Shown here one piece after another: positions 50,801 through 63,121 of a DNA stretch of 64,000 bases. The notes under the pieces were generated by a model, which saw only the letters and a list, made by a program, of their open reading frames with translations, was not told the origin of the DNA and ran no database searches. Positions within the stretch are counted from its first letter, which is position 1. Each line of letters starts with the position of its first letter. A program made the translations under genes and the position numbers. Source of the stretch: a bacterium (lineage in GTDB: Bacteria > Orphanbacterota > Orphanbacteria > JBJXGV01); the NCBI GenBank assembly GCA_046160485.1, contig JBJXGV010000073.1, forward strand, positions 12,076-76,075, given 5' to 3'.

Positions 50801-51214
50801 CTATCGCGACGCGAGGAGGCGCGTGACGAGCCCGATGAACGCGTCGAAGTCGACGATCGGCTTGCCGACGTACTCGTCCGCGCCGCTCGCGGCGAGCAGC
50901 GCCTCGCGATCGCCCTTCATCGTGTGCGCGGTCGCGAGCACGACCGGCACGTCCGCCGATCGCGGATCCGCTTTGATCAGCCGCGTGATCTCGAGGCCGT
51001 CGACGGGTTGCCCCTTGTAGATGCTTCCCGAAAGCGACACGTCCATGATGACAAGCGCGACCTCGCGCGCCGTCACGAGTCGCAGTGCTTCCGCGGGATC
51101 CTCCGTGTGGTGAACGGTGAACCCGCCGCGCCGCTCGAGAACGCGCGTGATCAGCTTCACGTTGCTCGGCTCATCCTCGACGAGAAGAATTCGCGCCGCC
51201 ACTTCGCCGCTCAT
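50801..51214 (-). CDS. Single-domain CheY-like response regulator
   Basis: The receiver fold shows ILLVEDE, the phospho-acceptor D in LVIMDVSL, and a KPI motif. Confidence 0.8.
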   Translation of the reverse strand: MSGEVAARILLVEDEPSNVKLITRVLERRGGFTVHHTEDPAEALRLVTAREVALVIMDVSLSGSIYKGQPVDGLEITRLIKADPRSADVPVVLATAHTMKGDREALLAASGADEYVGKPIVDFDAFIGLVTRLLASR

Positions 51215-53631
51215 ACGTTGCGAGCCTCGTTCGCCATCGCGAACCGCGCTTCCTCGTCCCGCGCGATGCGCGCGAGCGCACGATTGAGAATGCCGGGATC
51301 CTCACCCAGACGCGCCTTCGGAATGACGCCCCACACGTGCCCCGCGCGAAGGAGGCGACCGTTCGCACCGCTGGCGAGTTCCGGGTGGTTCGTGACGATG
51401 AGAATCTCCGGCCGCTCCGACGGCGCCATTCGCGCAACTTCGCGCAGCACGCCGAACCCGTCGAGCTCCGGCATGTCGAGATCCAGAAGCACCAGATCGA
51501 TCGGCGGACTCGCGCTTCGCAGCGCGTCGAGCGCGGCGACGCCGTTTACCGCTCGTGAGACGATCGTTCCTTGCGTGCGCGTGATCCGCTCGACGATCGT
51601 CGCCATCGCCGAGTCGTCGTCGGCGACGAGCACGCGCCGCACGCGGTGAACGCCGCGCGACGGCAACGCGTGGAGGTGGCGCAAAAGCTCCTCGGCGGAG
51701 ACGGGCTTACGAACGATCGGGATCGCGCTGTGGTCGGAGCCTTCCGCGGGAATTCCCTTCCCCGCGCTCTCCGGCGAGCCCGTAACGATGACGATCTTGC
51801 AATCCCAACTGAATTGCGCGGCGCGCGTGACGAGATCGACGCCCGTTTGCACCGCGGCGCCTGGAACCTCGGGCAATCCGAGATCCACCGTCATCGCGAT
51901 CGGGCGCATCTCCTCGGCAAGATGGAGCGCTTCATCGGCGGTACGCGCGACCATCGCGCGGAAACCGCCGGAGCGGATCACGCGGTAGAGATAGCGCGCG
52001 AACGAAGGGTCGTCCTCGACGACGAGTACGAGGGGCGCGGTCGGGTCGCAGTCGGCGAGAATGGCTTGCGCCTCGCCGGCGATGACACCCTCGGTGCGCT
52101 CGGTCTCGCGCGCCGCCGGGAGCGCGAACCAAACGCGCGTGCCGCGGCCTTCGCCATCGCTGGCCAGCTCGATCGTGCCGCCCATGAGTTCGACGAGGCT
52201 CTTCGAGAGAGCGAGCCCAAGGCCCGTTCCGCCATAACGCCGCGTCTGCGATCCGTCGACCTGCGTGAATTTCTTGAAGAGTTCGGGCTGCTTTTCCCTC
52301 GAGATGCCGATTCCCGTGTCGGCGACTTCGACGACCACGGAATCGTCCTCGCCGCGAAACGCGCGCACCGTCACCGAACCCTCGTGCGTGAACTTGATCG
52401 CGTTGCCCACGAGGTTGATCAGAACTTGCCGCACGCGTTCGGAATCGGCGAGCGCTTCGGGGAGCCCCTCCTCGACGTGAAACGAGAGCCGGAGGGAGCG
52501 CGTCTTCGCCTGAACGCCCATGAGCCGCTCGGTCTCGCGAAACTCGGCGTTCATCTCCACCGGTTCGCGCGCAACCTCGAGCCGCCCCGCCTCGATCTTC
52601 GTCAGGTCGAGCAGGTAATTGATCAGCGAGAGAAGATGAAGACTGGAGCGATGGGCGTCGCGCAAGAGGTCCATCCGTTCCTTCTCGTCGTCGCAAATCC
52701 CCTCGAGAATGAGCGACAGAAAGCCAATGATCGACGAGAGGGGCGTGCGCAGTTCGTGCGACATGTTCGCGAGAAATTCGCTTTTGAGGCGGTTGGCCTC
52801 CTCGGCGCGGTGACTCTGCAGAAGCAGCTCTTCGTTCTTTCGCGAAAGTTCGAGCGTGCGCCGCTGCACGAGCGACTCGAGTTGCCCTGTGTTCTGCTCG
52901 ATGAGCCGTCGCGACTCGACGAGATACGCGGTCATGACGTTGAAAGACTCGGTGAGTTCGCCGACCTCATCGCGTGTCTTCGACTCGAGCCGCAGTTCGA
53001 AGTTGCCGGCGCTGATTTTCTGCGCGGCCTTCGTGAGCGAACGCAGCGGCTGCGCGATCTGCCGGCTCACGAGGCCCATCGCGACGCTGTTCGCCGAAAC
53101 GATCAGGAGCGTGAAGAGGAGAATCGCGCGGCGGTTCGCGCTCGATCGTGCGTAGACGCCATCGAGCGAGTAGAGAACGGAAACATGTCCGAGCACGGCG
53201 CCCGCGGGCGAAATGATCGTTTCGGTGATCGTCTCGGTGTGCGCGGCGTTCGCAAGGCGGCTTCGATGGCGCGCCTTCTCCGCGTGATTCTCGACCGGAG
53301 GAAAGCTCGCCGCGACGTCGCCCTGCGCGTCGTAGACCTGCGCCGTCAGCACCTCGGGTACGCTGCCGAATCCGGTGAGGCGCGAGGAAACCGCGTAGAG
53401 GTCTTCGAAATCGAGCGCCGGCGCGAGGCTCGTTCCGATGGCGTTCGTCACGTGCCGGATCTCGCGCCGAAGCGCGGTCAGCGCGTCGCTCTCGTGCTGC
53501 GGCGGGAAATACAGATAAACGAACGTCGCGTTCGCGATCAAGAAGACGATCGCAACGGCGACGAATTTTAGGCCGAGCGAATTCTTGAACAGAGTGATCC
53601 GAAGCGTAGACGCGATCGAGTTGATGGCCAT
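51211..53631 (-). CDS. Hybrid sensor histidine kinase (TM sensor, HAMP, HisKA, HATPase, two receiver domains)
   Basis: The H-box is MSHELRTPLSSI and the ATP lid is DTGIGI and GGTGLGLALS. Two REC domains follow (VLVVEDD... and VLVADDD...). The stop overlaps the downstream response regulator start. Confidence 0.85.
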   Translation of the reverse strand: MAINSIASTLRITLFKNSLGLKFVAVAIVFLIANATFVYLYFPPQHESDALTALRREIRHVTNAIGTSLAPALDFEDLYAVSSRLTGFGSVPEVLTAQVYDAQGDVAASFPPVENHAEKARHRSRLANAAHTETITETIISPAGAVLGHVSVLYSLDGVYARSSANRRAILLFTLLIVSANSVAMGLVSRQIAQPLRSLTKAAQKISAGNFELRLESKTRDEVGELTESFNVMTAYLVESRRLIEQNTGQLESLVQRRTLELSRKNEELLLQSHRAEEANRLKSEFLANMSHELRTPLSSIIGFLSLILEGICDDEKERMDLLRDAHRSSLHLLSLINYLLDLTKIEAGRLEVAREPVEMNAEFRETERLMGVQAKTRSLRLSFHVEEGLPEALADSERVRQVLINLVGNAIKFTHEGSVTVRAFRGEDDSVVVEVADTGIGISREKQPELFKKFTQVDGSQTRRYGGTGLGLALSKSLVELMGGTIELASDGEGRGTRVWFALPAARETERTEGVIAGEAQAILADCDPTAPLVLVVEDDPSFARYLYRVIRSGGFRAMVARTADEALHLAEEMRPIAMTVDLGLPEVPGAAVQTGVDLVTRAAQFSWDCKIVIVTGSPESAGKGIPAEGSDHSAIPIVRKPVSAEELLRHLHALPSRGVHRVRRVLVADDDSAMATIVERITRTQGTIVSRAVNGVAALDALRSASPPIDLVLLDLDMPELDGFGVLREVARMAPSERPEILIVTNHPELASGANGRLLRAGHVWGVIPKARLGEDPGILNRALARIARDEEARFAMANEARNV

Positions 53632-53736: not shown

Positions 53737-56244
53737 CTAGCGCGACGCTTCGACGCGGGGCCGGCCGTCGGCGGAGCGGTCGTGCGGAACGCTCTCGAGG
53801 CCCCAAATCTCTCGTGCGTACTCGCGAACGGCGCGGTCGCTCGAGAACTTGCCGATGCGCGCGACGTTCATGATCGCGCGGCGCATCCACGCCTCGACGT
53901 TTCGAAACTCCGCACCGGCCGCGGCCTGCGTGTCGATGTACGAGGGCATGTCGGCGAGGTGGAAATAGTGGTCACCGTGTTCGACGATCGACTGGAAGAA
54001 ATGGTGGAAGATCCCGGGTTCGTCGGGACAAAAGCGATCGGACTTAAGCGAATCCATCACGCGCGCGAGGTTGGGGTTCGACGAATAGAGGTCGCGCGCC
54101 TTGTACGATCCGGCCTTGCGGCTTGCGGCGATTTCGTCGGCGCGCATTCCGAAGATGAAGATGTTCTCCGCGCCGACCTCTTCGCGAATCTCGATGTTCG
54201 CGCCGTCGAGCGTTCCGATCGTCAATGCGCCGTTCATCGCGAACTTCATGTTTCCCGTCCCGGAAGCCTCGGTTCCCGCTGTGGAGATCTGTTCCGAGAG
54301 ATCCGCCGCCGGGATGATTTTTTCGGCGAGCGACACGCGGTAGTCGGGCAGGAATACGACGCGGATGAGGCCGCGCACCTTCGGGTCGTTATTTACGACG
54401 CTTCCGATGCTGTGCACGAGTTTGACGATGCGCTTGGCAGCCCAGTATCCCGGCGCGGCCTTTCCCGCGATGATGTGCGTGCGCGGGAACGGCGGCTCGA
54501 TTCCGTCTTCGACGAGGGTTAGGTACTCATGAATGATGTGCATGAGATTGAGGAGCTGCCGCTTGTACTCGTGAATGCGCTTTGCCTGAATGTCGAAGAG
54601 CGAGCCGGTGTCGACCTTGATGCCTGTCAGAAGGCGAATCGACTTCGCTAGGCGCTCTTTGTTGGCGCGTTTGATCGCGGCGAACTCGTCGCGGAATCCC
54701 GCGTCGTCGGCGAACGGCTCGAGGCCGCGCAGCGCGTCGAGGTCCGTCACCCACTCGTCGCCGAGCGTCTCGGTGATGAGCCCCGCGAGCGCTGGGTTCG
54801 CCTTCAGCAGCCAACGCCGCTGCGTGACGCCGTTCGTCTTGTTGTTGAAACGCTGCGGCCAGAGTTCGTGGAAGTCGGGCGCGAGCGAGGTCTTCACGAG
54901 TTCGGAATGGATGGCGGCGACGCCGTTTACCGAGTGGCAGCCGACCATCGCGAGGTTCGCCATCCGCACGAGTTTTTCGCCGCCCTCTTCGACGAGGGAC
55001 ATCCGCTTCATTCGGTCGAGATCGCCGGGCCACACGGTCAACACGTGTCGCAGGAACTTGTCGTTGATCTCGTAAATGATCTGGAGGTGTCGCGGGAGAA
55101 CTCGATCGAGGAGCGACACGGGCCACTTCTCGAGCGCCTCCGGCAGAAGCGTGTGGTTCGTGTACGCGAGCGTCTCCTGCGTGATCTTCCAGGCGCGCGC
55201 CCACGGGATTCCCTTCTCGTCGATCAGCACGCGCATCAGCTCTGCGACGGCGAGCGCGGGGTGCGTATCGTTGAGTTGAATCGCCACCTTGTGAGGGAAC
55301 TCGTCCCACGGCTTCTTCGATTTTTCGAAGCGGCGCACGATGTCGGCAATCGCGCAGCCGACGAAGAAGTATTCCTGCAAGAGGCGCAACTCGCGCCCCG
55401 AAGGCAGCGAATCGGAAGGGTAGAGCACCTTCGAGATCGCTTCGCTTGCGATCTTCTGTTCGACCGCGCGAAGGTAGTCGCCCGCGTTGAAGATCTGCAT
55501 GTCGAAGTCTTGCGACGACGTCGCGGAGTAGAGGCGCAGCGAGTTGACCGTGTGTCCGCCATAGCCAACGATCGGAAGGTCGCTCGGAATGCCGACGACG
55601 AGTTTCCAATCCATCCAAATCGGATTCGTCTCGCCGCGGCGATCGGTGTCTTGCACGAGGCGTCCGTACACGGGAATGATGCACGCCTCATCGGGCCGCT
55701 CGATCAACCACGGTTTTCCCTGCGAAAGCCAGTTGTCCGGGCGTTCGCGCTGGTAACCGTTTTCAACCTCCTGCTTGAAGATGCCGAACTCGTAGTTGAT
55801 GCCGTAACCGAAGCCCGGCATGCCGAGCGTCGCGAGCGAATCGAGATAACACGCGGCGAGGCGGCCGAGACCGCCGTTGCCGAGCGCGGCGTCCGCTTCG
55901 CCCTCGCGAATCTCCTCGAGATCGACGCCCATTCGTTCGAGCGCTTGGTGGCACATCTCGTAAATGCCGAGGTTGTAGAGATTGTTGCCGAGCGAGCGGC
56001 CGATCAGAAACTCGATCGAGAGGTAGTAGAGGCGCTTCGCGTCTGCTTCCTGGTAGCGCGCCTCCGTCTCGAGCATGCGATCGACGAGGAGATCGCGTAC
56101 GGTCAGCGCCACCGCGAGGAAAAGGTCGTGGCCCGACAGCTCGCTCCACTCTTTCCCGAGCGAGTAGCGCGCATGCCGGCGCACCGACTCTTGAAACTCG
56201 GCGGTGCGCGTCGCGCGGCTCAAATTTTTCGCAGCAGATGCCAT
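53737..56244 (-). CDS. glgP: Glycogen/alpha-glucan phosphorylase
   Basis: The GT35 motifs are present, including the PLP-Lys region EASGTGNMKFAMNGA, across the full length. The internal start MASAAK is chosen. Confidence 0.9.
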   Translation of the reverse strand: MASAAKNLSRATRTAEFQESVRRHARYSLGKEWSELSGHDLFLAVALTVRDLLVDRMLETEARYQEADAKRLYYLSIEFLIGRSLGNNLYNLGIYEMCHQALERMGVDLEEIREGEADAALGNGGLGRLAACYLDSLATLGMPGFGYGINYEFGIFKQEVENGYQRERPDNWLSQGKPWLIERPDEACIIPVYGRLVQDTDRRGETNPIWMDWKLVVGIPSDLPIVGYGGHTVNSLRLYSATSSQDFDMQIFNAGDYLRAVEQKIASEAISKVLYPSDSLPSGRELRLLQEYFFVGCAIADIVRRFEKSKKPWDEFPHKVAIQLNDTHPALAVAELMRVLIDEKGIPWARAWKITQETLAYTNHTLLPEALEKWPVSLLDRVLPRHLQIIYEINDKFLRHVLTVWPGDLDRMKRMSLVEEGGEKLVRMANLAMVGCHSVNGVAAIHSELVKTSLAPDFHELWPQRFNNKTNGVTQRRWLLKANPALAGLITETLGDEWVTDLDALRGLEPFADDAGFRDEFAAIKRANKERLAKSIRLLTGIKVDTGSLFDIQAKRIHEYKRQLLNLMHIIHEYLTLVEDGIEPPFPRTHIIAGKAAPGYWAAKRIVKLVHSIGSVVNNDPKVRGLIRVVFLPDYRVSLAEKIIPAADLSEQISTAGTEASGTGNMKFAMNGALTIGTLDGANIEIREEVGAENIFIFGMRADEIAASRKAGSYKARDLYSSNPNLARVMDSLKSDRFCPDEPGIFHHFFQSIVEHGDHYFHLADMPSYIDTQAAAGAEFRNVEAWMRRAIMNVARIGKFSSDRAVREYAREIWGLESVPHDRSADGRPRVEASR

Positions 56245-56525
56245 TCGATGTTGTTCTCGCGGAATCCCCGACGCGCCCCGTCGCCGCGAGCGGCGCTCGC
56301 GGCGAACTGGAACAAACGACCCAAAGCGATAACCCATACCGAGGCGTCTTGTCCACACAGTATCGGCGGCTCGGTAAGCCGGCGTGAGATGCATGCGGCG
56401 CGGCGGCGCGAAACAAAGGATGCGAGAGCTTCATTGCACGCGCTCTATCCGGCTGCAATAATGGGCGCTGCCGCGCGCGTGCGGCCGCGTCTCCGACGCA
56501 TCGCGACGCGCCCGCACGAGGAGAG

Positions 56526-57707
56526 ATGACGCCGAATCGAAATCCGGGCACGCCCCAACCTCCCGATAGTCCCGCTCCGACTCCCGGCGAACACGACGCT
56601 GGTGAATCGCGAGTGCCGACGACTCTCGGCGGGAGCGCGTTCTTCTACCTGCTCGACGGCGGCGTGCCGCAAGCGCGCACGATCGCGCCCGAACTCGAGA
56701 CGCAGCGAAAGATTGCGGCCGACCCGGCGCGTTCGCTCGAGGAGCGGCTCGAGGCGTTCGAAGACATCATGGACTCCGAGATCGGCGACACGACGCTTTC
56801 GCGCGCGCGCAACGTGGAGCGGGAGGTCGGCCTGCGCCAGATCTATCTCAAGTTCGACGGCGGAAATCCCACGGGCACGCAGAAGGATCGAATTGCTTTT
56901 GCGCAAGCGATGGACGCGCTCCGCCGCGGCTTCAACGCGATCACGGTGGCGACGTGCGGAAATTTTGGCGCGGCCGTCGCGCTCGCGGCGTCGGTCGCGG
57001 GGCTGCGCTGCATCGTTTACATCCCCGAGGGCTATCACACGAAGCGTGTCGACGAGATGACGGGCTACGGCGCGGAGATCGAGCGCGTGCCTGGAGATTA
57101 CGAGAACGCGGTAATCGCGTCGCGCGCGCGCGCCACGCGCGACGACGTTTACGACGCGAACCCGGGCGGCGCGAACACGGCGCTTCAACTTCGCGCATAC
57201 GGCGAGATCGCCTACGAGATCTACGACGAGTTGCGCGACGCGCCGGCCGCTGTCGCCGCGCCGGTTTCGAACGGCACGACGCTCGCGGGGATCTATCGCG
57301 GATTTCTAAGCCTCTACCGGCGCGGGAAGACATCGCGGATGCCTCGCATCATCGCGGGCTCGTCGCAGGGCAAGAATCCGATCGTCAAGGCGTTCATCAA
57401 AAAGACGCCGCACTGCGAGAATCTCGATCCTGACTTGATTCGCGAGACGGCTGTCAACGAGCCGCTGATCAACTGGCATTCGATCGACGGCAATCACGCT
57501 CTCGACGCGCTTCGCGCGACGGGAGGATGGGCATCGAACGCGACCGACAAGAATTTGCTCGCGACGGCGCGGCTGATTCTCGAGCGCGAAGGGTTGAACG
57601 TCTTGCCGGCGTCGACCGCGGGACTGGTGGCGCTGCTCGAAAAGCATCGCGAGGAAGCGCTTCCGGGCGATCGCTACGTCGTCGTGCTGACGGGGAGGCG
57701 GTCGTGA
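56526..57707 (+). CDS. Threonine-synthase-like fold-type II PLP-dependent enzyme
   Basis: The PLP-Lys motif is GGNPTGTQKDR (compare the threonine synthase NPTGSFKDR). A Gly-rich loop and a Pro-rich N-terminal extension are present, so the start may be downstream of the first ATG. Confidence 0.65.
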   Translation: MTPNRNPGTPQPPDSPAPTPGEHDAGESRVPTTLGGSAFFYLLDGGVPQARTIAPELETQRKIAADPARSLEERLEAFEDIMDSEIGDTTLSRARNVEREVGLRQIYLKFDGGNPTGTQKDRIAFAQAMDALRRGFNAITVATCGNFGAAVALAASVAGLRCIVYIPEGYHTKRVDEMTGYGAEIERVPGDYENAVIASRARATRDDVYDANPGGANTALQLRAYGEIAYEIYDELRDAPAAVAAPVSNGTTLAGIYRGFLSLYRRGKTSRMPRIIAGSSQGKNPIVKAFIKKTPHCENLDPDLIRETAVNEPLINWHSIDGNHALDALRATGGWASNATDKNLLATARLILEREGLNVLPASTAGLVALLEKHREEALPGDRYVVVLTGRRS

Positions 57708-58786
57708 CGGGTGCTCCGCCGCTCGACGGCAACGCGATCGTCTACTGCGAGGGCGCGTTCGCGACGCCGAATGGAAAGACGGCGCACGGGCTGGTGCGGC
57801 GCACGGCGCGCTATCGCGTTCTTGCCGTGATCGATTCGCGCCATTCGGGAAAGGATGCGCGCGAGGTGCTCGACGGAAAGCGCACCGGCATCCCGGTCGT
57901 CTCAAGCGTCGGCGACGCGCTCGATGCGGCGCGTGCGGCCGGCGCGGCGGCAACCCACTTCGTGATCGGGCTCGCGCCCGACGGCGGCCGGCTTCCCGCG
58001 GCGGCGCGCGCGGACGTGTTGCAGGCCGTGCGCGCCGGCCTGCACGTCGACAGCGGTCTGCACGACTTTCTCTCCGACGACGCGGAGATCGCAGCACTCG
58101 CGCGTGAGAACGGCGTGCGAATCCGCGACGTCCGAAAGACGCCGCCGCGCAACGAACTCCACTTCTTCAGCGGGAAGATCGAGCAGGTGACGTCGCTGAC
58201 GGTCGCGCTTCTCGGCACGGACTCGGCGGTCGGAAAGCGGACGACGGCGTGGGTGCTCGTCGAGGCGTTGCGCGCCGCGGGAAAGAGCGCGGAGATGATC
58301 GGCACCGGACAGACCGCGTGGATGCAGGGCGCGCGCTACACGCTCATTCTCGATTCGCTCATCAACGATTTCGTGGCCGGCGAAATCGAGCACGCGGTGT
58401 GGAGCGCGTGGAGCGATCTGCACCCCGACGTGATCGTGATCGAAGGACAAGGGAGCCTCATGAATCCGGCGTACCCGGGAGGCTTCGAGATTCTCGCGGC
58501 GGGACGGCCCGACGTTGTCGTTCTGCAGCACGCGCCCGCGCGCAAGGAGTACGACGGTTTCCCCGGCTACCCGCTTCATCCGATCGATGTGCAGATTCGC
58601 GCGGTCGAACTGCTCTCCGGTAAACCAGTCGTCGCCGTGACCGTCAACCACGAGGACCTCGCGCGCAACGAGATTCCCGCGGCGTGCGAGGCGATTCGAC
58701 GCGCGACGGGGTTGCCCGTATGCGATCCGCTAGTGGACAGCATGGACGAGATCGTCGCCGCGGTGCTCGCGCGCGGGAAACGCTAG
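57704..58786 (+). CDS. DUF1611-family protein (Rossmann-like; the family includes D-glutamate N-acetyltransferase DgcN)
   Basis: The GTG start overlaps the preceding stop (GTGA). The length and conserved blocks (LGTDSAVGKRTT, IVIEGQGSL) match DUF1611. A dipeptide-epimerase gene lies nearby. Confidence 0.6.
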   Translation: MTGAPPLDGNAIVYCEGAFATPNGKTAHGLVRRTARYRVLAVIDSRHSGKDAREVLDGKRTGIPVVSSVGDALDAARAAGAAATHFVIGLAPDGGRLPAAARADVLQAVRAGLHVDSGLHDFLSDDAEIAALARENGVRIRDVRKTPPRNELHFFSGKIEQVTSLTVALLGTDSAVGKRTTAWVLVEALRAAGKSAEMIGTGQTAWMQGARYTLILDSLINDFVAGEIEHAVWSAWSDLHPDVIVIEGQGSLMNPAYPGGFEILAAGRPDVVVLQHAPARKEYDGFPGYPLHPIDVQIRAVELLSGKPVVAVTVNHEDLARNEIPAACEAIRRATGLPVCDPLVDSMDEIVAAVLARGKR

Positions 58787-58791
58787 GCCGC

Positions 58792-61305
58792 GTGGCGACG
58801 CGACGCACGGCACCGCGTGCAAAACCCGCGGCCAAACCGCGCGCTGCGCGTTCGACGGCGCGAGCCAAACCGCGCGCGGCGCGCTCCGCCGATCCGCTCG
58901 CCGTTCTGCAAGTAATCGACCGCCTCGATGTCGGGCCCGTGCGCGTCGAACGCACGCGCCTGATCGCGCCGTACACGGTGACGCGGCGCGGCGCGAGCGA
59001 ATCCTTCGATCTGATCTACCGGTTCGGCGAAGACGTTTTCGAGCCGCACGACGCGGCGTCTCGGAATCTCGCATCGATGATCGCCGCTCAGGTCGCTATC
59101 AACTACGGGCTCTTCTGCGGCGAGATTGCGTTCCGCGGGCCGTTCGACGAAAGCGATCAGCGCTTCATCGAGGAGATGGTCGAGAACACCGCGCGCGAAA
59201 TCTTCGTGAAGAGGTTCCTCGAGCCGAATCTGTTTCTCGTGGGGCCGGCGTCGCTCTTGCCGCCCGTGAAGCGCGAGTCGTATACGCGCGCGAAACTGCT
59301 CTTCGATGCCGGCGCCGCGGAGCCGCGCGCGGAGGTTGCCGGCGCCGACGGACGCGGCGCGCGTTGGCGTGTCGATCCCGCGCGCCACGCGGTTCTCTCG
59401 AGCGGCGGGAAGGACAGCCTCCTCACGTACGGCCTCCTCCGCGAGATCGGGCGTGAGTCGCATCCAATCTTCATCAACGAGTCGGGGCGCCACTGGTTCA
59501 CTGCGCTCAACGCGTACCGGCACCTCGTCGCGGTCGAGCCGAAGACGGCGCGCGTTTGGACGAACGCCGACCGGCTCTTCACGTGGATGAAGCGCCATCT
59601 TCCGTTTGTCCGCGCCGATTTCGATCGCGTGCGCGCCGACTACTACCCGATTCGCCTCTGGACTGTCGCGGTCTTCCTCTTCGGATCACTTCCGCTTCTG
59701 CGCAAGCGCGGTATCGGCCGCCTCGTGATCGGCAACGAGTTCGACACGACGCGGCGCCTCACGTTCGAAGAGATCACGCACTACGACGGTCTCTACGACC
59801 AGAGCCGTTACTTCGACAACGCGCTGACGCGATACTTCGCGCGAAAGGCTTGGGGCGTCGCGCAGTTCTCGATTCTGCGCCCTCTCTCTGAGCTGTTGAT
59901 CCAGAAGATGCTCGTTCAACGCTATCCCGATCTTCAGCGCGACCAAGTGTCGTGCCATATGACGCACAAGGACGGCGATCGCGTGTTGCCGTGCGGCGCG
60001 TGCGAAAAGTGTCGGCGCATCGTGAGCATGCTCGTTGCGTTCGGCGGCGACCCGTCGGCGTGCGGCTACGCGTCCGACCAGATCGCGCAGTCGATCGCTG
60101 CGTTCGCCGAGAAGGGATCGCACACAGAGACTCCGGGCGCACAGCACGTCGCGTTTCTCTTGCGGGAGAAGGGGCTCTTTCCGACGGTCGCGGCCGGCGC
60201 GGGCGCGGTGAGCGCGCGCGAGCGGCCCGAGATCGCGAAGCTGCGATTCGATCCCGAGCGATCGCCGTCGCATGGCATGCCCAACGATCTGCGCGAGCCG
60301 CTCTACCGCATCTACCTCGAGCACTGCGACGGCGCCGTCAAGAAGAGCGGGCGCGTTTGGATTCCGTGCGACCCGCTGCGCGACGAGACGTTTTCGGGGC
60401 CGTATCCGTTCGAGCGTCTCGCGCGCGGGCGCGGCGCGGCTGCGAGCAGTGGCGACCCGACATCGCCCGCGACGCGCGCGCGCGCCGCGGGAGCGCATCC
60501 TCCAGCGACTGCCGAGAGGGGCGCGCGCGACTACCTCCTCGGCGAGTTGACGTGGCCGGAGGCTCGCGCGCGCCTCAAGGAAATGGACGTCGCGCTTCTT
60601 CCCGTCGGCGCTATCGAGCAGCACGGGCCGCACCTGCCGCTCGACACGGACGCATTCGACGCCGAGTATCTCGCGCACCAAGTCGCATCGACATGCACCG
60701 ATCCGAAGCCGCTCGTGCTGCCGCTCATTCCATACGGCGTCTCGTACCACCACGACGACTTCAGCGGAACGATTAGCGTCAGCAACGAAGCGCTCTCACG
60801 CATCGTCTACGAGATCGGCATCAGCGCGGCGCGCAACGGGATCACGAAACTCGTCATCATCAACGGCCACGGCGGCAACGCGCCGACGCTCCAGTTCGCG
60901 GCGCAAATGATCAATCGCGACACGAGCATCTTCACATGCGTCGACACCGGCGAGACGAGCGACGCGGACATCTCCGAGATCGTCGAGACGCCGAACGACG
61001 TTCACGCGGGCGAGGTCGAGACGAGTACATCGCTCGCGAATCGCCCCGGTCTGGTCAAGTTCGACAAGGCACGCAAACTCGTCCCGCGATTCTCGAGCCG
61101 CTTCCTCGATTTCTCCTCGAAGCGGAGCGTCGAGTGGTACGCGCGGACCTCGCGCATCTCGCCGACGGGCGTGCTCGGCGATCCGACGAAGGCGTCGCGC
61201 GAAAAAGGCGAGCGCATCTGGGAGCTCATGGTTCAGCGCCTCGTCGAGTTCGTCGAGCACCTCAAGACGCTGTCGCTCGATGAGATCTACCAGCGGAAAT
61301 ACTAG
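58792..61305 (+). CDS. Fusion protein: N-terminal PP-loop ATP pyrophosphatase (QueC-like, with Cys-cluster) joined to a C-terminal creatininase-family amidohydrolase
   Basis: The PP-loop reads HAVLSSGGKDSLLTYGLL and the zinc-ribbon-like cluster reads CHMTHKDGDRVLPCGACEKCRR. The C-terminal 270 aa carry the creatininase-family metal-binding motifs GAIEQHGPHLPLDTD, IINGHGGN and HAGEVETS. The probable GTG start lies just after the DUF1611 stop. The tracked ORF start at 58684 overlaps the previous gene. Confidence 0.6.
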   Translation: MATRRTAPRAKPAAKPRAARSTARAKPRAARSADPLAVLQVIDRLDVGPVRVERTRLIAPYTVTRRGASESFDLIYRFGEDVFEPHDAASRNLASMIAAQVAINYGLFCGEIAFRGPFDESDQRFIEEMVENTAREIFVKRFLEPNLFLVGPASLLPPVKRESYTRAKLLFDAGAAEPRAEVAGADGRGARWRVDPARHAVLSSGGKDSLLTYGLLREIGRESHPIFINESGRHWFTALNAYRHLVAVEPKTARVWTNADRLFTWMKRHLPFVRADFDRVRADYYPIRLWTVAVFLFGSLPLLRKRGIGRLVIGNEFDTTRRLTFEEITHYDGLYDQSRYFDNALTRYFARKAWGVAQFSILRPLSELLIQKMLVQRYPDLQRDQVSCHMTHKDGDRVLPCGACEKCRRIVSMLVAFGGDPSACGYASDQIAQSIAAFAEKGSHTETPGAQHVAFLLREKGLFPTVAAGAGAVSARERPEIAKLRFDPERSPSHGMPNDLREPLYRIYLEHCDGAVKKSGRVWIPCDPLRDETFSGPYPFERLARGRGAAASSGDPTSPATRARAAGAHPPATAERGARDYLLGELTWPEARARLKEMDVALLPVGAIEQHGPHLPLDTDAFDAEYLAHQVASTCTDPKPLVLPLIPYGVSYHHDDFSGTISVSNEALSRIVYEIGISAARNGITKLVIINGHGGNAPTLQFAAQMINRDTSIFTCVDTGETSDADISEIVETPNDVHAGEVETSTSLANRPGLVKFDKARKLVPRFSSRFLDFSSKRSVEWYARTSRISPTGVLGDPTKASREKGERIWELMVQRLVEFVEHLKTLSLDEIYQRKY

Positions 61306-61551
61306 TGCGGTTCGCGTGAGTCGCGTGTTCTTGCCGCCGTCGTTCTCACCTCTCGCGCTGTTGCGAACCATCCCGCCGCGACGCGGGGTGTCTCCCGCGG
61401 GGCCGTGTCGACGCCGCCGGGTGCCCGCCCGAAGCAGCGCTTTGCGCTGCCTGGCGGGCGGCGCCGCGACCCGGAGGGGAGGCGCGAGAGCGCCGGACCC
61501 GTCCCCGCCGGAGACACTTCGCGTCGCGGCGGCGGCCGGAGCCCCAGACCA

Positions 61552-62619
61552 GTGAAGATCACCGCGGTACACGCCTGGCCAGTAACGATGCGATTGGCGG
61601 AGCCGTATGCGATCGCGTACGAGACGGTCGAGACGACGACGAATGTATTCCTACGAATCGAGACAAACCGGAGCATCGTCGGATTCGGGTGCGCGGCGCC
61701 GGATCGCGAGATCACGGGGGAGACGCCGGAGGGCGTGCTCGCGGCGGTGCGCGACGTGATCGCGCCGGCGTTTAAGGGCGCGGATCCGTTGCGGTCGGCG
61801 CTTCTGCTGCAGCGGTTGTGGGCGCCGCTCGCCGCGCAGCCGTCTGCGATGGCCGCGGCGGACATCGCGCTCTACGACTTGCTCGGGAAAGCGGCGGGTC
61901 TGCCGCTCTGGAAAATTCTCGGCGGCTTCCGCGATCGCATGCGCACGAGCATTACCGTGGGAATCTTGCCCGTCGACGAGACGGTGCGCCGTTCACGCGC
62001 GTGGGTCGACGATGGTTTTCGATGTCTGAAGATCAAAGGCGGGCTCGACCTCGACGAAGACGTGGAGCGCGTGCTGAAGGTGCGCGCCGAAGTCGGCGAT
62101 GGGATCGAGTTGCGCTTCGACGCGAATCAGGGCTACACAGTCGAGCAGTCTCTCACGTTCGTCGAACGTGTGCGCCCGGCGCGGCTCGAGCTGATCGAAC
62201 AGCCGACGCCGAAGGGCGAGCCGGATCTCTTGGGCCGCGTGGCGAGCGGCGTGTCGATTCCCGTGATGGCCGACGAGAGCTTGATGACGCTGCGCGACGC
62301 GTACCGAATCGCGCGAAAAAACTTCGCCGACATGGTGAACGTGAAACTGATGAAGGTCGGCGGCATCTCCGAGTCGCTCAAGATCAACGCTGTTGCGCGC
62401 GCCGCGCGGCTTGAAGTGATGGTGGGCTGCATGGACGAAGCGGCGCTCGGGATCGCCGCGGGGCTCCACTTCGCGCTCGCGCGCCCGAACGTGATGTACG
62501 CCGATCTCGACGGACACATCGGCCTCGTCGGCGACCCCTCCGACGGCGCCGTCATTCTCAAGAACGGAACGCTTTTCCCCAATGACAAGCCGGGGCTCGG
62601 ATTCGATTTCCCGGAATAG
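61552..62619 (+). CDS. Enolase-superfamily dipeptide epimerase (L-Ala-D/L-Glu epimerase-like, MR/MLE subgroup)
   Basis: There is a capping domain, and the barrel carries a KIKGG-type Lys region (CLKIKGG), the metal ligand DANQGY, and a second Lys region NVKLMKVGG. A probable GTG start gives VKITAVHAWPV. Confidence 0.7.
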   Translation: MKITAVHAWPVTMRLAEPYAIAYETVETTTNVFLRIETNRSIVGFGCAAPDREITGETPEGVLAAVRDVIAPAFKGADPLRSALLLQRLWAPLAAQPSAMAAADIALYDLLGKAAGLPLWKILGGFRDRMRTSITVGILPVDETVRRSRAWVDDGFRCLKIKGGLDLDEDVERVLKVRAEVGDGIELRFDANQGYTVEQSLTFVERVRPARLELIEQPTPKGEPDLLGRVASGVSIPVMADESLMTLRDAYRIARKNFADMVNVKLMKVGGISESLKINAVARAARLEVMVGCMDEAALGIAAGLHFALARPNVMYADLDGHIGLVGDPSDGAVILKNGTLFPNDKPGLGFDFPE

Positions 62620-62659: not shown

Positions 62660-63121
62660 ATGCCCGCGATCAACGTCGGCGATGCCGCTCCCGATTTCAC
62701 GCTACGGGATCATATGCGGAACGATGTGACGCTCTCTGCGTTCCGCGGCCAGAAGAAAATCGTGCTCGCGTTCTATGTGTTCGCGTTCACCGGTGGCTGA
62801 ACTCGCGAGCTGCAGGCCTACCAGCAGAACGTAAGCGCGCTGGAAGCGGCCGACACCCAGGTTCTGGGTGTGAGCATGGACAGTCCATTCGCGAACAAGG
62901 CGTTCGCCGAATCGATCGGCGTCACGTTCCCGCTCTTGAGCGATTGGGGAGGCGATGTGACGCGCGCGTACGGCGTCTACAACGAAAAAGAGAAAGCGCC
63001 GCGCCGCGTGACGTATCTCATCGACAAGACCGGCAAGGTGACGTCGATGCAAGTCGACAAGGACGCGGTGGATCCGACAGCGATCGTGACCGAGTGCACG
63101 ATCGGCGCGCCGAAGAAGTAA
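62660..63121 (+). CDS. Peroxiredoxin (Bcp/PrxQ-like) with an in-frame TGA at the peroxidatic-cysteine position, a candidate selenocysteine-containing PrxU-like protein
   Basis: A GGAGGAGGAAG RBS precedes MPAINVGDAAPDFTL...KKIVLAFYVFAFTGG-[TGA 62798..62800]-TRELQAYQQNVSALEAADTQVLGVSMDSPFANKAFAES... The two tracked ORFs 62582..62800 and 62870..63121 are in the same frame and together reconstitute a full-length Prx. Its F-T-x-x-C-T-x-E active-site motif reads F-T-G-G-U-T-R-E. Confidence 0.65.

Follow-up and report, generated by a model that had tools for sequence, protein, structure and literature searches.

In the 64,000-nucleotide stretch of DNA analysed here (contig JBJXGV010000073.1, positions 12,076 to 76,075; hereafter the window), a single gene joins a predicted PP-loop ATPase domain, referred to as the N-domain, to a creatininase-type amidohydrolase domain. 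This fusion gene is the third in a cassette of four that recurs in many other genomes. The motifs, folds and gene neighbours point to a bifunctional enzyme of a conserved four-gene pathway of amino-acid or dipeptide modification, in which the N-domain would adenylate a substrate and amidate or cyclise it, and the hydrolase domain would cut an amide. This reading is the one that we prefer, tentatively and at slightly less than an even chance.

One reading frame, two sets of active-site motifs

The fusion gene lies in an open reading frame (ORF) of the forward strand, 58684 to 61305, without an internal stop. Its annotated start is the GTG at 58792, and the 837-amino-acid (aa) product is the NCBI protein labelled 'MAG: creatininase family protein [bacterium]', where MAG stands for metagenome-assembled genome. 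Two samples of relatives were used: the 120 best-matching homologues, all 780-870 aa long and 61-91% identical over at least 95% of the query, and 81 distinct loci from other genomes, in which neighbours were counted only where the contig leaves room for them. In 78 of the 81 loci one frame encodes first the N-domain and then the creatininase domain, the latter with a median identity of 72% to the window protein. An earlier note on this DNA had proposed a single polypeptide, and the collinearity of both halves in these loci, closed MAG chromosomes and the cultured strain NaphS2 among them, argues against a frameshift artefact; the chance that an assembly or sequencing error joined two genes, for which only the low-complexity linker between the domains might speak, is practically nil.

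Two low-complexity segments interrupt this picture of conservation. No other ATG, GTG or TTG was found from codon 2 up to D34-P-L, the first residues to be conserved, and therefore the Ala/Lys/Arg/Pro-rich tail that the earlier note had pointed out is translated (aa 1-32). The tail is kept only in the three closest relatives, where its length varies, and is predicted to be disordered; it is thus a lineage-specific feature. The linker between the domains (aa ~543-580) is likewise unconserved and predicted to be disordered.

The motifs on which the earlier note relied are all present, and all are invariant in the alignment of the 120 full-length homologues. They comprise the SGGKDS PP-loop, the Cys4 cluster and the three metal-binding blocks of the creatininase family, namely EQHGPHLPLDTD, N691-G-H693-G-G-N (NGHGGN) and H738-A-G-E741-x-E743 (HAGEVE). 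The metal ligands E609, H611, D618/D620, H693, H738, E741 and E743 are invariant in the same 120 sequences. Judged from this alignment, both sets of active-site motifs are intact and strongly constrained.

Assignment of the C-terminal half is straightforward. It matches Pfam PF02633 over profile positions 2-238 of 238 with 240.4 bits (gathering score 31.3; E 2e-71), and by sequence its last ~250 aa are an intact creatininase/MftE-type binuclear metallo-amidohydrolase, much as the earlier note had suggested. The cut-off of every named creatininase subfamily is missed: MftE (TIGR03964) 157.5 bits of 172, creatininase (TIGR04448) 103.8 of 235, IolN 73 of 245 and ArfB 36 of 180. The nearest of these, MftE, is a peptidase that cuts near the C-terminus of a peptide. 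In contrast to the mycofactocin setting of MftE, the hydrolase here is fused to a PP-loop domain and its cassette has no mycofactocin genes; neither radical-SAM genes nor precursor genes (mftA/B/C) were found among the conserved neighbours of related loci.

Relatives of the N-terminal domain

Standard sequence models give little help with the N-terminal half. Residues 1-583 have no Pfam match even at E <= 10, that is, none to the QueC family PF06508, and no QueC model (TIGR00364) is among the NCBIfam matches. A phmmer search of the N-terminal half against PDB sequences returned one chance match to a repeat protein and nothing else. Structure prediction is more informative: an AlphaFold2 (AF2) model of aa 30-560, built from the 120-sequence alignment, has a predicted local distance difference test (pLDDT) score of 88 and a predicted template modelling score (pTM) of 0.89. 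Its top PDB matches in Foldseek all belong to the QueC family: QatC (9y02_B and 9y01_B), Cap9 (9nto_B) and the QueC proteins of B. subtilis (3bl5) and Erwinia carotovora subsp. atroseptica (2pg3), with target-normalised template modelling (TM) scores of 0.69 for 3bl5_A and 0.63 for 2pg3. Identity to the QueC-family structures is 10-18%, and the lower-scoring matches are other PP-loop enzymes (MJ0690, YcfA, TtuA). Because the best matches of this confident model are QatC, Cap9 and QueC, the N-terminal ~510 aa are predicted to form a PP-loop ATPase whose core has the fold and Cys4 motif of the QueC type and carries additional N- and C-terminal subdomains.

Profile searches agree with the model. 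A profile of 26 diverse family members matched only PP-loop enzymes among PDB sequences, including MnmA, TtuA, Cap9 and MJ0690, and all of these align at the strand-SGGxDS-helix unit. Across 26 divergent members C388, C401 and C404 are invariant and C407 is kept in at least 90%. The N-domain thus has in common with QueC, QatC and Cap9 the SGGxDS PP-loop, a C-x(n)-C-x2-C-x2-C motif (in QatC a Zn-binding C-x19-C-x2-C-x2-C; PMC13279940) and a Rossmann-like core. It also resembles QatC in having extensions on both sides of this core, the N-terminal one alpha/beta; that N-terminal subdomain is kept throughout the family, stand-alone homologues included. The differences are that the N-domain belongs to none of these families at the level of hidden Markov models (HMMs), and that its cassette has neither deazapurine pathway genes nor defence partners. 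'QueC-like', the term of the earlier note, is therefore right for the fold and the motifs, but by no sequence model is the protein a member of the QueC family. QueC-family enzymes make amides from adenylated carboxylates (PMC13279940); the fold and motifs of the N-domain are those of enzymes that cleave ATP to AMP and pyrophosphate while activating a carboxylate or carbonyl oxygen.

The sole consistent sequence relative is MurL, whose model (NF041275) is the only NCBIfam family to match the N-domain. Ten of the 26 diverse members match the MurL HMM, and no other family is matched repeatedly. The best match comes from the most divergent member, P0249 (E 7e-10, 37.9 bits over 225 residues, MurL positions 130-354), followed by P0271 and P0272 at about 3e-7. 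The matches are collinear over MurL positions ~97-354, which include the PP-loop core and the Cys region. This link is drawn from the NCBIfam HMM rather than from a profile-profile alignment with MurL sequences, and a search seeded with the intermediate P0249 recovered only six relatives, none of them named. Since every score is far under the 700-bit cut-off of the model, the sequence relationship is one of remote homology and not of membership.

MurL is an epimerase that acts on the C-terminal Glu of a peptide. Its reaction requires ATP and Mg and yields AMP, and adenylation of the Glu alpha-carboxylate has been proposed; according to its discoverers it 'lacks known conserved domains' (PMC5808125, PMC8788868). 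No other characterised family resembles the N-domain family repeatably in sequence, and the length of MurL (447 aa) is close to that of stand-alone N-domain homologues (460-520 aa). The fusion protein differs from MurL in its extra hydrolase domain and in having a cofactor-independent dipeptide epimerase as a neighbour, and the cassette has no MurD2 partner or cell-wall gene context; no Mur ligase was found in the neighbourhoods of related loci. Ala-Glu is an unlikely substrate for the fusion protein.

A search of 1.84 billion representative proteins with the N-domain profile gave 623 clusters. Stand-alone N-domain proteins of 460-523 aa mostly keep the Cys motif and SGGK[DE]S. Some divergent paralogues (P0130, P0152, P0155, P0183, P0184, P0219) have a degenerate PP-loop, for instance VESGTNDLL, YVSGSAESAL or LQDGSSEGLV, and in some of them the Cys motif is altered as well. 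Two of these, P0152 and P0155, retain the fusion, with a creatininase domain that looks intact. Such paralogues may be ATP-independent or regulatory versions. In a single cluster (P0124, 855 aa), a DUF1611 domain (aa 44-349) is fused to an N-domain (aa 377-852), which could be a Rosetta-stone link between the two or could also reflect a lost stop codon, given the 5-nucleotide gap between the corresponding genes in the window. The gene of P0271 (L090:2599-3999), a PP-loop protein that resembles MurL and the N-domain (E 4e-7 against the MurL HMM), lies on an 11.5-kb contig of phage-like look, made up almost entirely of small same-strand ORFs without Pfam matches.

The four-gene cassette

In a scan of one genome per species, a relative of the fusion was found in at least 578 species genomes. 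By record title, the carriers include Desulfobacterota, Acidobacteriota, Gemmatimonadota, Planctomycetota, Ignavibacteria, Calditrichota, Zixibacteria, Latescibacterota and others; these are the labels of MAG records, among which mis-binned contigs may be present. The delta proteobacterium NaphS2 is a cultured carrier. The gene order is that of the window: a threonine-synthase (ThrC)-like pyridoxal phosphate (PLP) enzyme, a DUF1611 protein, the fusion protein and a dipeptide epimerase. The earlier note had asked whether the fusion always adjoins DUF1611 or an epimerase, and this is nearly so. DUF1611 is directly upstream in 71 of the 74 loci with room (median identity 68%) and the enolase-type epimerase directly downstream in 65 of 70 (66%); additionally, the PLP enzyme lies upstream in 70 of 71 (70%). 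The N-domain, present in all 81 loci by construction, has a median identity of 60%. Across phyla each cassette protein is 55-77% identical.

Any further neighbour is shared by about 12 loci at most. Recurrent lesser neighbours are YitT/DUF2179 and DUF5698/DUF2179 membrane proteins, Nif3-like proteins, Ddl-like ATP-grasps, CorA and DHH phosphoesterases. The variable neighbours hint at ion or osmotic homeostasis (YitT/DUF2179 in 12 loci, DUF5698 with DUF2179 in 8, CorA in 8). A mechanosensitive channel, TrkA-domain permeases, CNNM and DHH phosphoesterases also occur among them (L001, L002, L075 and the cluster analysis of the 81 loci). Rfam gave no riboswitch or other RNA match in the cassette, and a promoter and terminator scan found nothing above chance. 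No paper on the fusion or the cassette was found in literature searches (DUF1611; creatininase with PP-loop; PF07755/TM0796), and neither is mentioned in a 2026 survey of the QueC family.

The composition of more divergent clusters indicates which parts of the cassette belong together. Two loci from MAGs titled Eubacteriales (L019 and L026) have the PLP enzyme, DUF1611, N-domain and epimerase, with no creatininase domain found in the fetched locus, and L088 and L089 have the same four components without the hydrolase. Since these cassettes do without it, the hydrolase is an accessory step and not an obligatory partner. L083 and the locus of P0186 each combine the PLP enzyme, DUF1611, N-domain and a GNAT protein. 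The cassette L085, on a contig with archaeal-type genes, has the PLP enzyme, DUF1611 and N-domain. In a Thorarchaeota MAG (L091:1837-5981), a remote N-domain relative (hhalign probability 97.6% against the N-domain profile) lies beside a Ddl-like ATP-grasp, a GNAT protein and a PRK06381-type PLP enzyme; the ATP-grasp sits where the bacterial cassette has DUF1611. Two bacterial loci (L057 and L075) have just the PLP enzyme and the fusion, without DUF1611 and the epimerase. Close to these are a histone-deacetylase-type amidohydrolase fused to GNAT and two Ddl-like ATP-grasps (L057:10396-14756), and a RimK-like ATP-grasp with an AstE/AspA-type deacylase (L075:3503-5808), that is, enzymes that build and cleave amino-acid amide bonds, as in the cassette. 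The PLP enzyme and the PP-loop protein stay paired in very divergent clusters, archaeal ones included (L083, L085, L088, L091), while the other partners vary. Therefore, the deepest conserved pair is the PLP enzyme with the PP-loop protein, and DUF1611 or an ATP-grasp, the epimerase, and the hydrolase or GNAT are modular additions.

The features of the cassette in the window are collected in Table 1. In the PLP enzyme the PLP lysine is present, whereas the motifs by which ThrC binds phosphate (STGNT, NSVNPxRxEGQKT and GNAGN) are not kept; a canonical threonine synthase was rejected on these grounds. The DUF1611 protein is a paralogue of DgcN (157 bits against the DgcN HMM, cut-off 480), which N-acetylates D-glutamate, and its PDB relatives are 2g0t, 2obn and 7xrj, the last identified as this D-glutamate acetyltransferase (10.1101/2024.10.14.618325). 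The likely start of its gene, the GTG at 57704, overlaps the stop of the PLP-enzyme gene (GTGA, 57704-57707), and only 5 nucleotides separate its own stop from the start of the fusion gene (58786-58792). This overlap and short gap suggest that genes 1-3 are translationally coupled. The fusion and epimerase genes are 246 nucleotides apart, and the spacer is predicted to fold into its hairpin at -153 kcal/mol (z = -3.7; 0 of 200 shuffles fold as well). In other genomes this gap is only about 0-30 nucleotides, so the spacer is taken to be a lineage-specific insertion, possibly resembling a repetitive extragenic palindrome (REP) or a miniature inverted-repeat transposable element (MITE); it has no Rfam match.

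Table 1. Features of the fusion gene and its cassette (positions in the window; domain limits given with ~ are approximate)
Feature	Position	Strand	Basis or remarks
Gene 1, fold-type II PLP enzyme, threonine-synthase-like (NCBIfam PRK06381 type)	56526..57707	+	Pfam PALP 192 bits; NF004996 421 bits, cut-off 266
Gene 2, DUF1611 protein, Rossmann-like N domain and P-loop C domain	57704..58786	+	Pfam DUF1611_N and DUF1611
Gene 3, fusion gene, 837 aa	58792..61305	+	Single ORF; 100% identical to P0001
Low-complexity basic tail, Ala/Lys/Arg/Pro, aa 1-32	58792..58887	+	Unconserved in alignment; pLDDT 36-40
N-terminal extension subdomain, beta-sheet and helices, aa ~33-175	58888..59316	+	AF2 pLDDT >90; motifs NYGLF, NTAREI
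PP-loop ATP-pyrophosphatase core, QueC-type fold (predicted), aa ~190-430	59359..60081	+	Foldseek, profile search, weak MurL HMM matches
PP-loop motif SGGKDS, aa 204-209	59401..59418	+	Translation; 120 homologues
Cys4 cluster C388-x12-C401-x2-C404-x2-C407 (CH...PCGACEKC), presumed Zn site	59953..60012	+	Translation
C-terminal extension of N-domain, helices and small sheet, conserved RFDPERSP and GRxW, aa ~431-542	60082..60417	+	Alignment, AF2 model
Interdomain linker, Ala/Pro/Arg/Gly-rich, aa ~543-580	60418..60531	+	Mostly gaps in homologues; pLDDT 29-49
Creatininase-family binuclear metallo-amidohydrolase domain (predicted), aa 585-821	60544..61254	+	Pfam PF02633
First creatininase block, E609-Q-H611...D618/D620	60616..60654	+	Translation
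GC-rich spacer, 246 nucleotides, long imperfect hairpin	61306..61551	+	Folding
Gene 4, enolase-superfamily dipeptide epimerase	61552..62619	+	Pfam MR_MLE_N/C

The epimerase offers an indication of its substrate. Its closest structures are the L-Ala-D/L-Glu epimerase YkfB (1jpm, E 8e-67) and the dipeptide epimerases 3rit and 3jva. Aligned to these three, it keeps the KxK motif and the second catalytic Lys, the D/E/D metal ligands and the DxD motif (DLD), within the segments LKIKGG, KLMKVGG, FDANQG/IEQP/MADES and ADLDG. The DxD motif of dipeptide epimerases binds the free ammonium group of the dipeptide, a role that Lukk et al. reportedly described in 2012. In YkfB, according to the 1TKK work, Arg24 reportedly grips the Glu side chain. 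The cassette epimerase has Glu at this position, within an acidic 20s loop (E17, E24, E/D27) that is conserved in 68 orthologues, which speaks against L-Ala-D/L-Glu as its substrate. From these residues, the substrate is probably a dipeptide with a non-acidic, possibly cationic, C-terminal residue.

Beyond the cassette, an 83-aa ORF (62870-63121, forward strand) resembles by eye the C-terminal part of an AhpC/TSA-type peroxiredoxin without the N-terminal catalytic region, and may be a frameshifted or truncated gene. Upstream, on the opposite strand, are a glycogen-phosphorylase-like ORF of 885 aa (53737-56394) and a hybrid sensor histidine kinase of 806 aa (51211-53631), both likewise recognised by eye; neither kind of gene is among the recurrent neighbour families of related loci.

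Possible functions of the fusion protein

In the pathway that we favour, the PLP enzyme would make or modify an amino acid, which DUF1611, or the Ddl-like ATP-grasp that takes its place in some remote clusters, would couple or acylate. The resulting dipeptide-like intermediate would have a free N-terminal ammonium group and a non-acidic, possibly cationic, C-terminal residue, which the enolase-type epimerase would invert. The N-domain would then adenylate the terminal carboxylate of this intermediate, a substrate of the MurL type. From there it would transfer the acyl group to nitrogen, with ammonia (the nucleophile in QueC) or an amine of the substrate itself as the acceptor, to give a C-terminal amide or lactam. 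Finally, the hydrolase domain would cut an amide in the same scaffold, whether by opening a ring or by removing a carrier or protecting residue.

Several points weigh against this scheme. The substrate, nucleophile and product of the fusion are all inferred, and specific products would be guesses. A synthetase and a hydrolase of a similar bond could amount to a futile cycle unless the bonds differ. As the ThrC phosphate-binding motifs are gone, the reaction of the PLP enzyme is not predictable, and the characterised DUF1611 relative DgcN is an acetyl-CoA-dependent acetyltransferase and no ligase. The link to MurL is weak, with the window protein scoring only 20.5-21.5 bits (E 7e-5) against a cut-off of 700. 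Additionally, the full-length AF2 model (pTM 0.67) has a disordered linker and no confident interdomain geometry, and the absence of the hydrolase domain from some otherwise identical cassettes means that the coupling is not obligatory. The sequential chemistry on one substrate that the earlier note had read into the fusion is plausible but unproven.

Two known systems follow a comparable logic. In the D-glutamate pathway of DgcN and DgcA, as in the cassette, a DUF1611 protein goes together with a racemase or epimerase of the enolase superfamily, and the amidohydrolase could complete the acylate-invert-deacylate logic of this and the N-succinyl-amino-acid racemase pathways. However, the cassette's DUF1611 protein and epimerase both fall under the DgcN/DgcA cut-offs, the dipeptide DxD motif of the epimerase would not be expected in an enzyme for N-acetyl amino acids, and these pathways have no counterpart of the PLP enzyme or the PP-loop domain. 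The second is the pathway to the dipeptide-amide osmolyte N-acetylglutaminylglutamine amide (NAGGN), whose logic is that of a GNAT, a ligase and a PP-loop amidotransferase (PMC8070244). There, a dipeptide built by a ligase is N-acylated (Ngg: GNAT plus ligase) and its C-terminal carboxylate is amidated by an adenylating PP-loop enzyme (AsnO). The Thorarchaeota locus L091 has exactly a GNAT, an ATP-grasp and a PP-loop relative, in addition to the PLP enzyme. The likeness is one of functional analogy only, as the homology of the proteins goes no further than the PP-loop superfamily and the cassette has no glutaminase domain.

A more specific version of the amidation pathway, possible but doubtful, has the cassette making a new small metabolite, a D-residue dipeptide amide or lactam such as a compatible solute or cofactor precursor. 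The MurL/QueC-like domain would use ATP to amidate or cyclise the C-terminus, and hydrolysis by the creatininase domain would either oppose this step or finish the product, such that one protein sets the pool size. The idea of a compatible solute comes from the tilt of the variable neighbours towards ion and osmotic homeostasis, which is suggestive only.

Other explanations are less probable. In the main rival, which we consider unlikely, the N-domain would act as MurL does, as an ATP-driven one-way epimerase of the C-terminal residue of a peptide, and the creatininase domain would open the activated or cyclic intermediate stereoselectively, releasing the D-form. MurL, the sole characterised sequence relative, works so in outline, members of the creatininase family hydrolyse cyclic amides, and the closest characterised relatives of three cassette proteins (MurL, DgcN and YkfB) all handle N-acyl or peptidyl D/L-Glu-type substrates. 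Against this, such an activity would be redundant beside the cofactor-independent epimerase already in the cassette, MurL needs no separate hydrolase, no MurD2-type ligase is near in related loci, the acidic specificity loop of the epimerase speaks against Glu, and the cassette also occurs in archaea (L085, L091).

Distinctly less likely again is a cycle of sulfur insertion, in which the PP-loop domain would make a thiocarboxylate, like LarE or TtuA, the ThrC/CysM/MetM-like PLP enzyme would use it to form cysteine, homocysteine or a thiol amino acid, and the hydrolase would free the product from an acyl carrier after an S-to-N shift, as Mec+ does. A ThrC-like enzyme, MetM, does use a thiocarboxylate (10.1101/2024.10.14.618325), TtuA-type sulfurtransferases are among the weaker fold and sequence matches, the Cys cluster is conserved, a TauE sulfite exporter gene adjoins one divergent cluster, and fusing activation and release on one carrier would be sensible. 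However, C-x12-C-x2-C-x2-C is the zinc pattern of QueC and QatC and not a three-Cys Fe-S one, the conserved neighbours do not include a sulfur-carrier protein, cysteine desulfurase or rhodanese, and the roles of the epimerase and DUF1611 would be left unexplained.

That the N-domain is a true QueC of 7-deazaguanine (queuosine or archaeosine) metabolism, with a formamide or cyclic-amide hydrolase attached, is highly improbable. Its QueC-like fold and Cys4 motif would fit, some Joint Genome Institute (JGI) annotations name homologues '7-cyano-7-deazaguanine synthase', and ArfB, a pyrimidine formamide hydrolase and itself a weak match here, belongs to the creatininase family. Yet neither Pfam nor NCBIfam yields a QueC match, and among the conserved neighbours in the 81 loci, which are amino-acid enzymes, there is no queD, queE, queF or GTP cyclohydrolase (folE) gene. 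We regard it as just as improbable that the fusion modifies proteins for an anti-phage defence system in the manner of QatC and Cap9: these two head the structural matches and QatC has the same three-part architecture, but the four cassette proteins have no PADLOC match at E <= 0.1, no QatA, QatB or QatD partner or CD-NTase is present, and plasmid and phage collections contain no homologue of the fusion. Strict synteny and the high identity across phyla are, moreover, unlike defence islands.

The earlier note had called the fusion novel, and this stands in part. The fusion is neither rare nor categorically new, because both domains belong to known superfamilies, annotation pipelines label the creatininase half, and some JGI annotations name both ('creatinine amidohydrolase.../7-cyano-7-deazaguanine synthase'). 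What is new is an N-domain family that neither Pfam nor NCBIfam models, related to QueC/QatC by fold and to MurL by sequence; the accessory nature of the hydrolase, a module added to the deeper core that the PLP enzyme and the PP-loop protein form; and a cassette that has not been characterised and ranks with the better-conserved orphan operons of uncultured anaerobes.

An unchanged gene order and 55-77% identity over a dozen or so labelled phyla, with relatives of the core in archaea, usually mark a physiologically important product. Because NaphS2 is a cultured carrier, the prediction is open to test. If the small-metabolite version were true, the product of the cassette would be widespread in anaerobic sediment bacteria and some archaea, and MurL would gain a structural home in a QueC-fold PP-loop family with many unexplored members. 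Overall, the N-domain family ties MurL to the QueC/QatC fold, which suggests a general type of enzyme that activates the C-termini of peptides.

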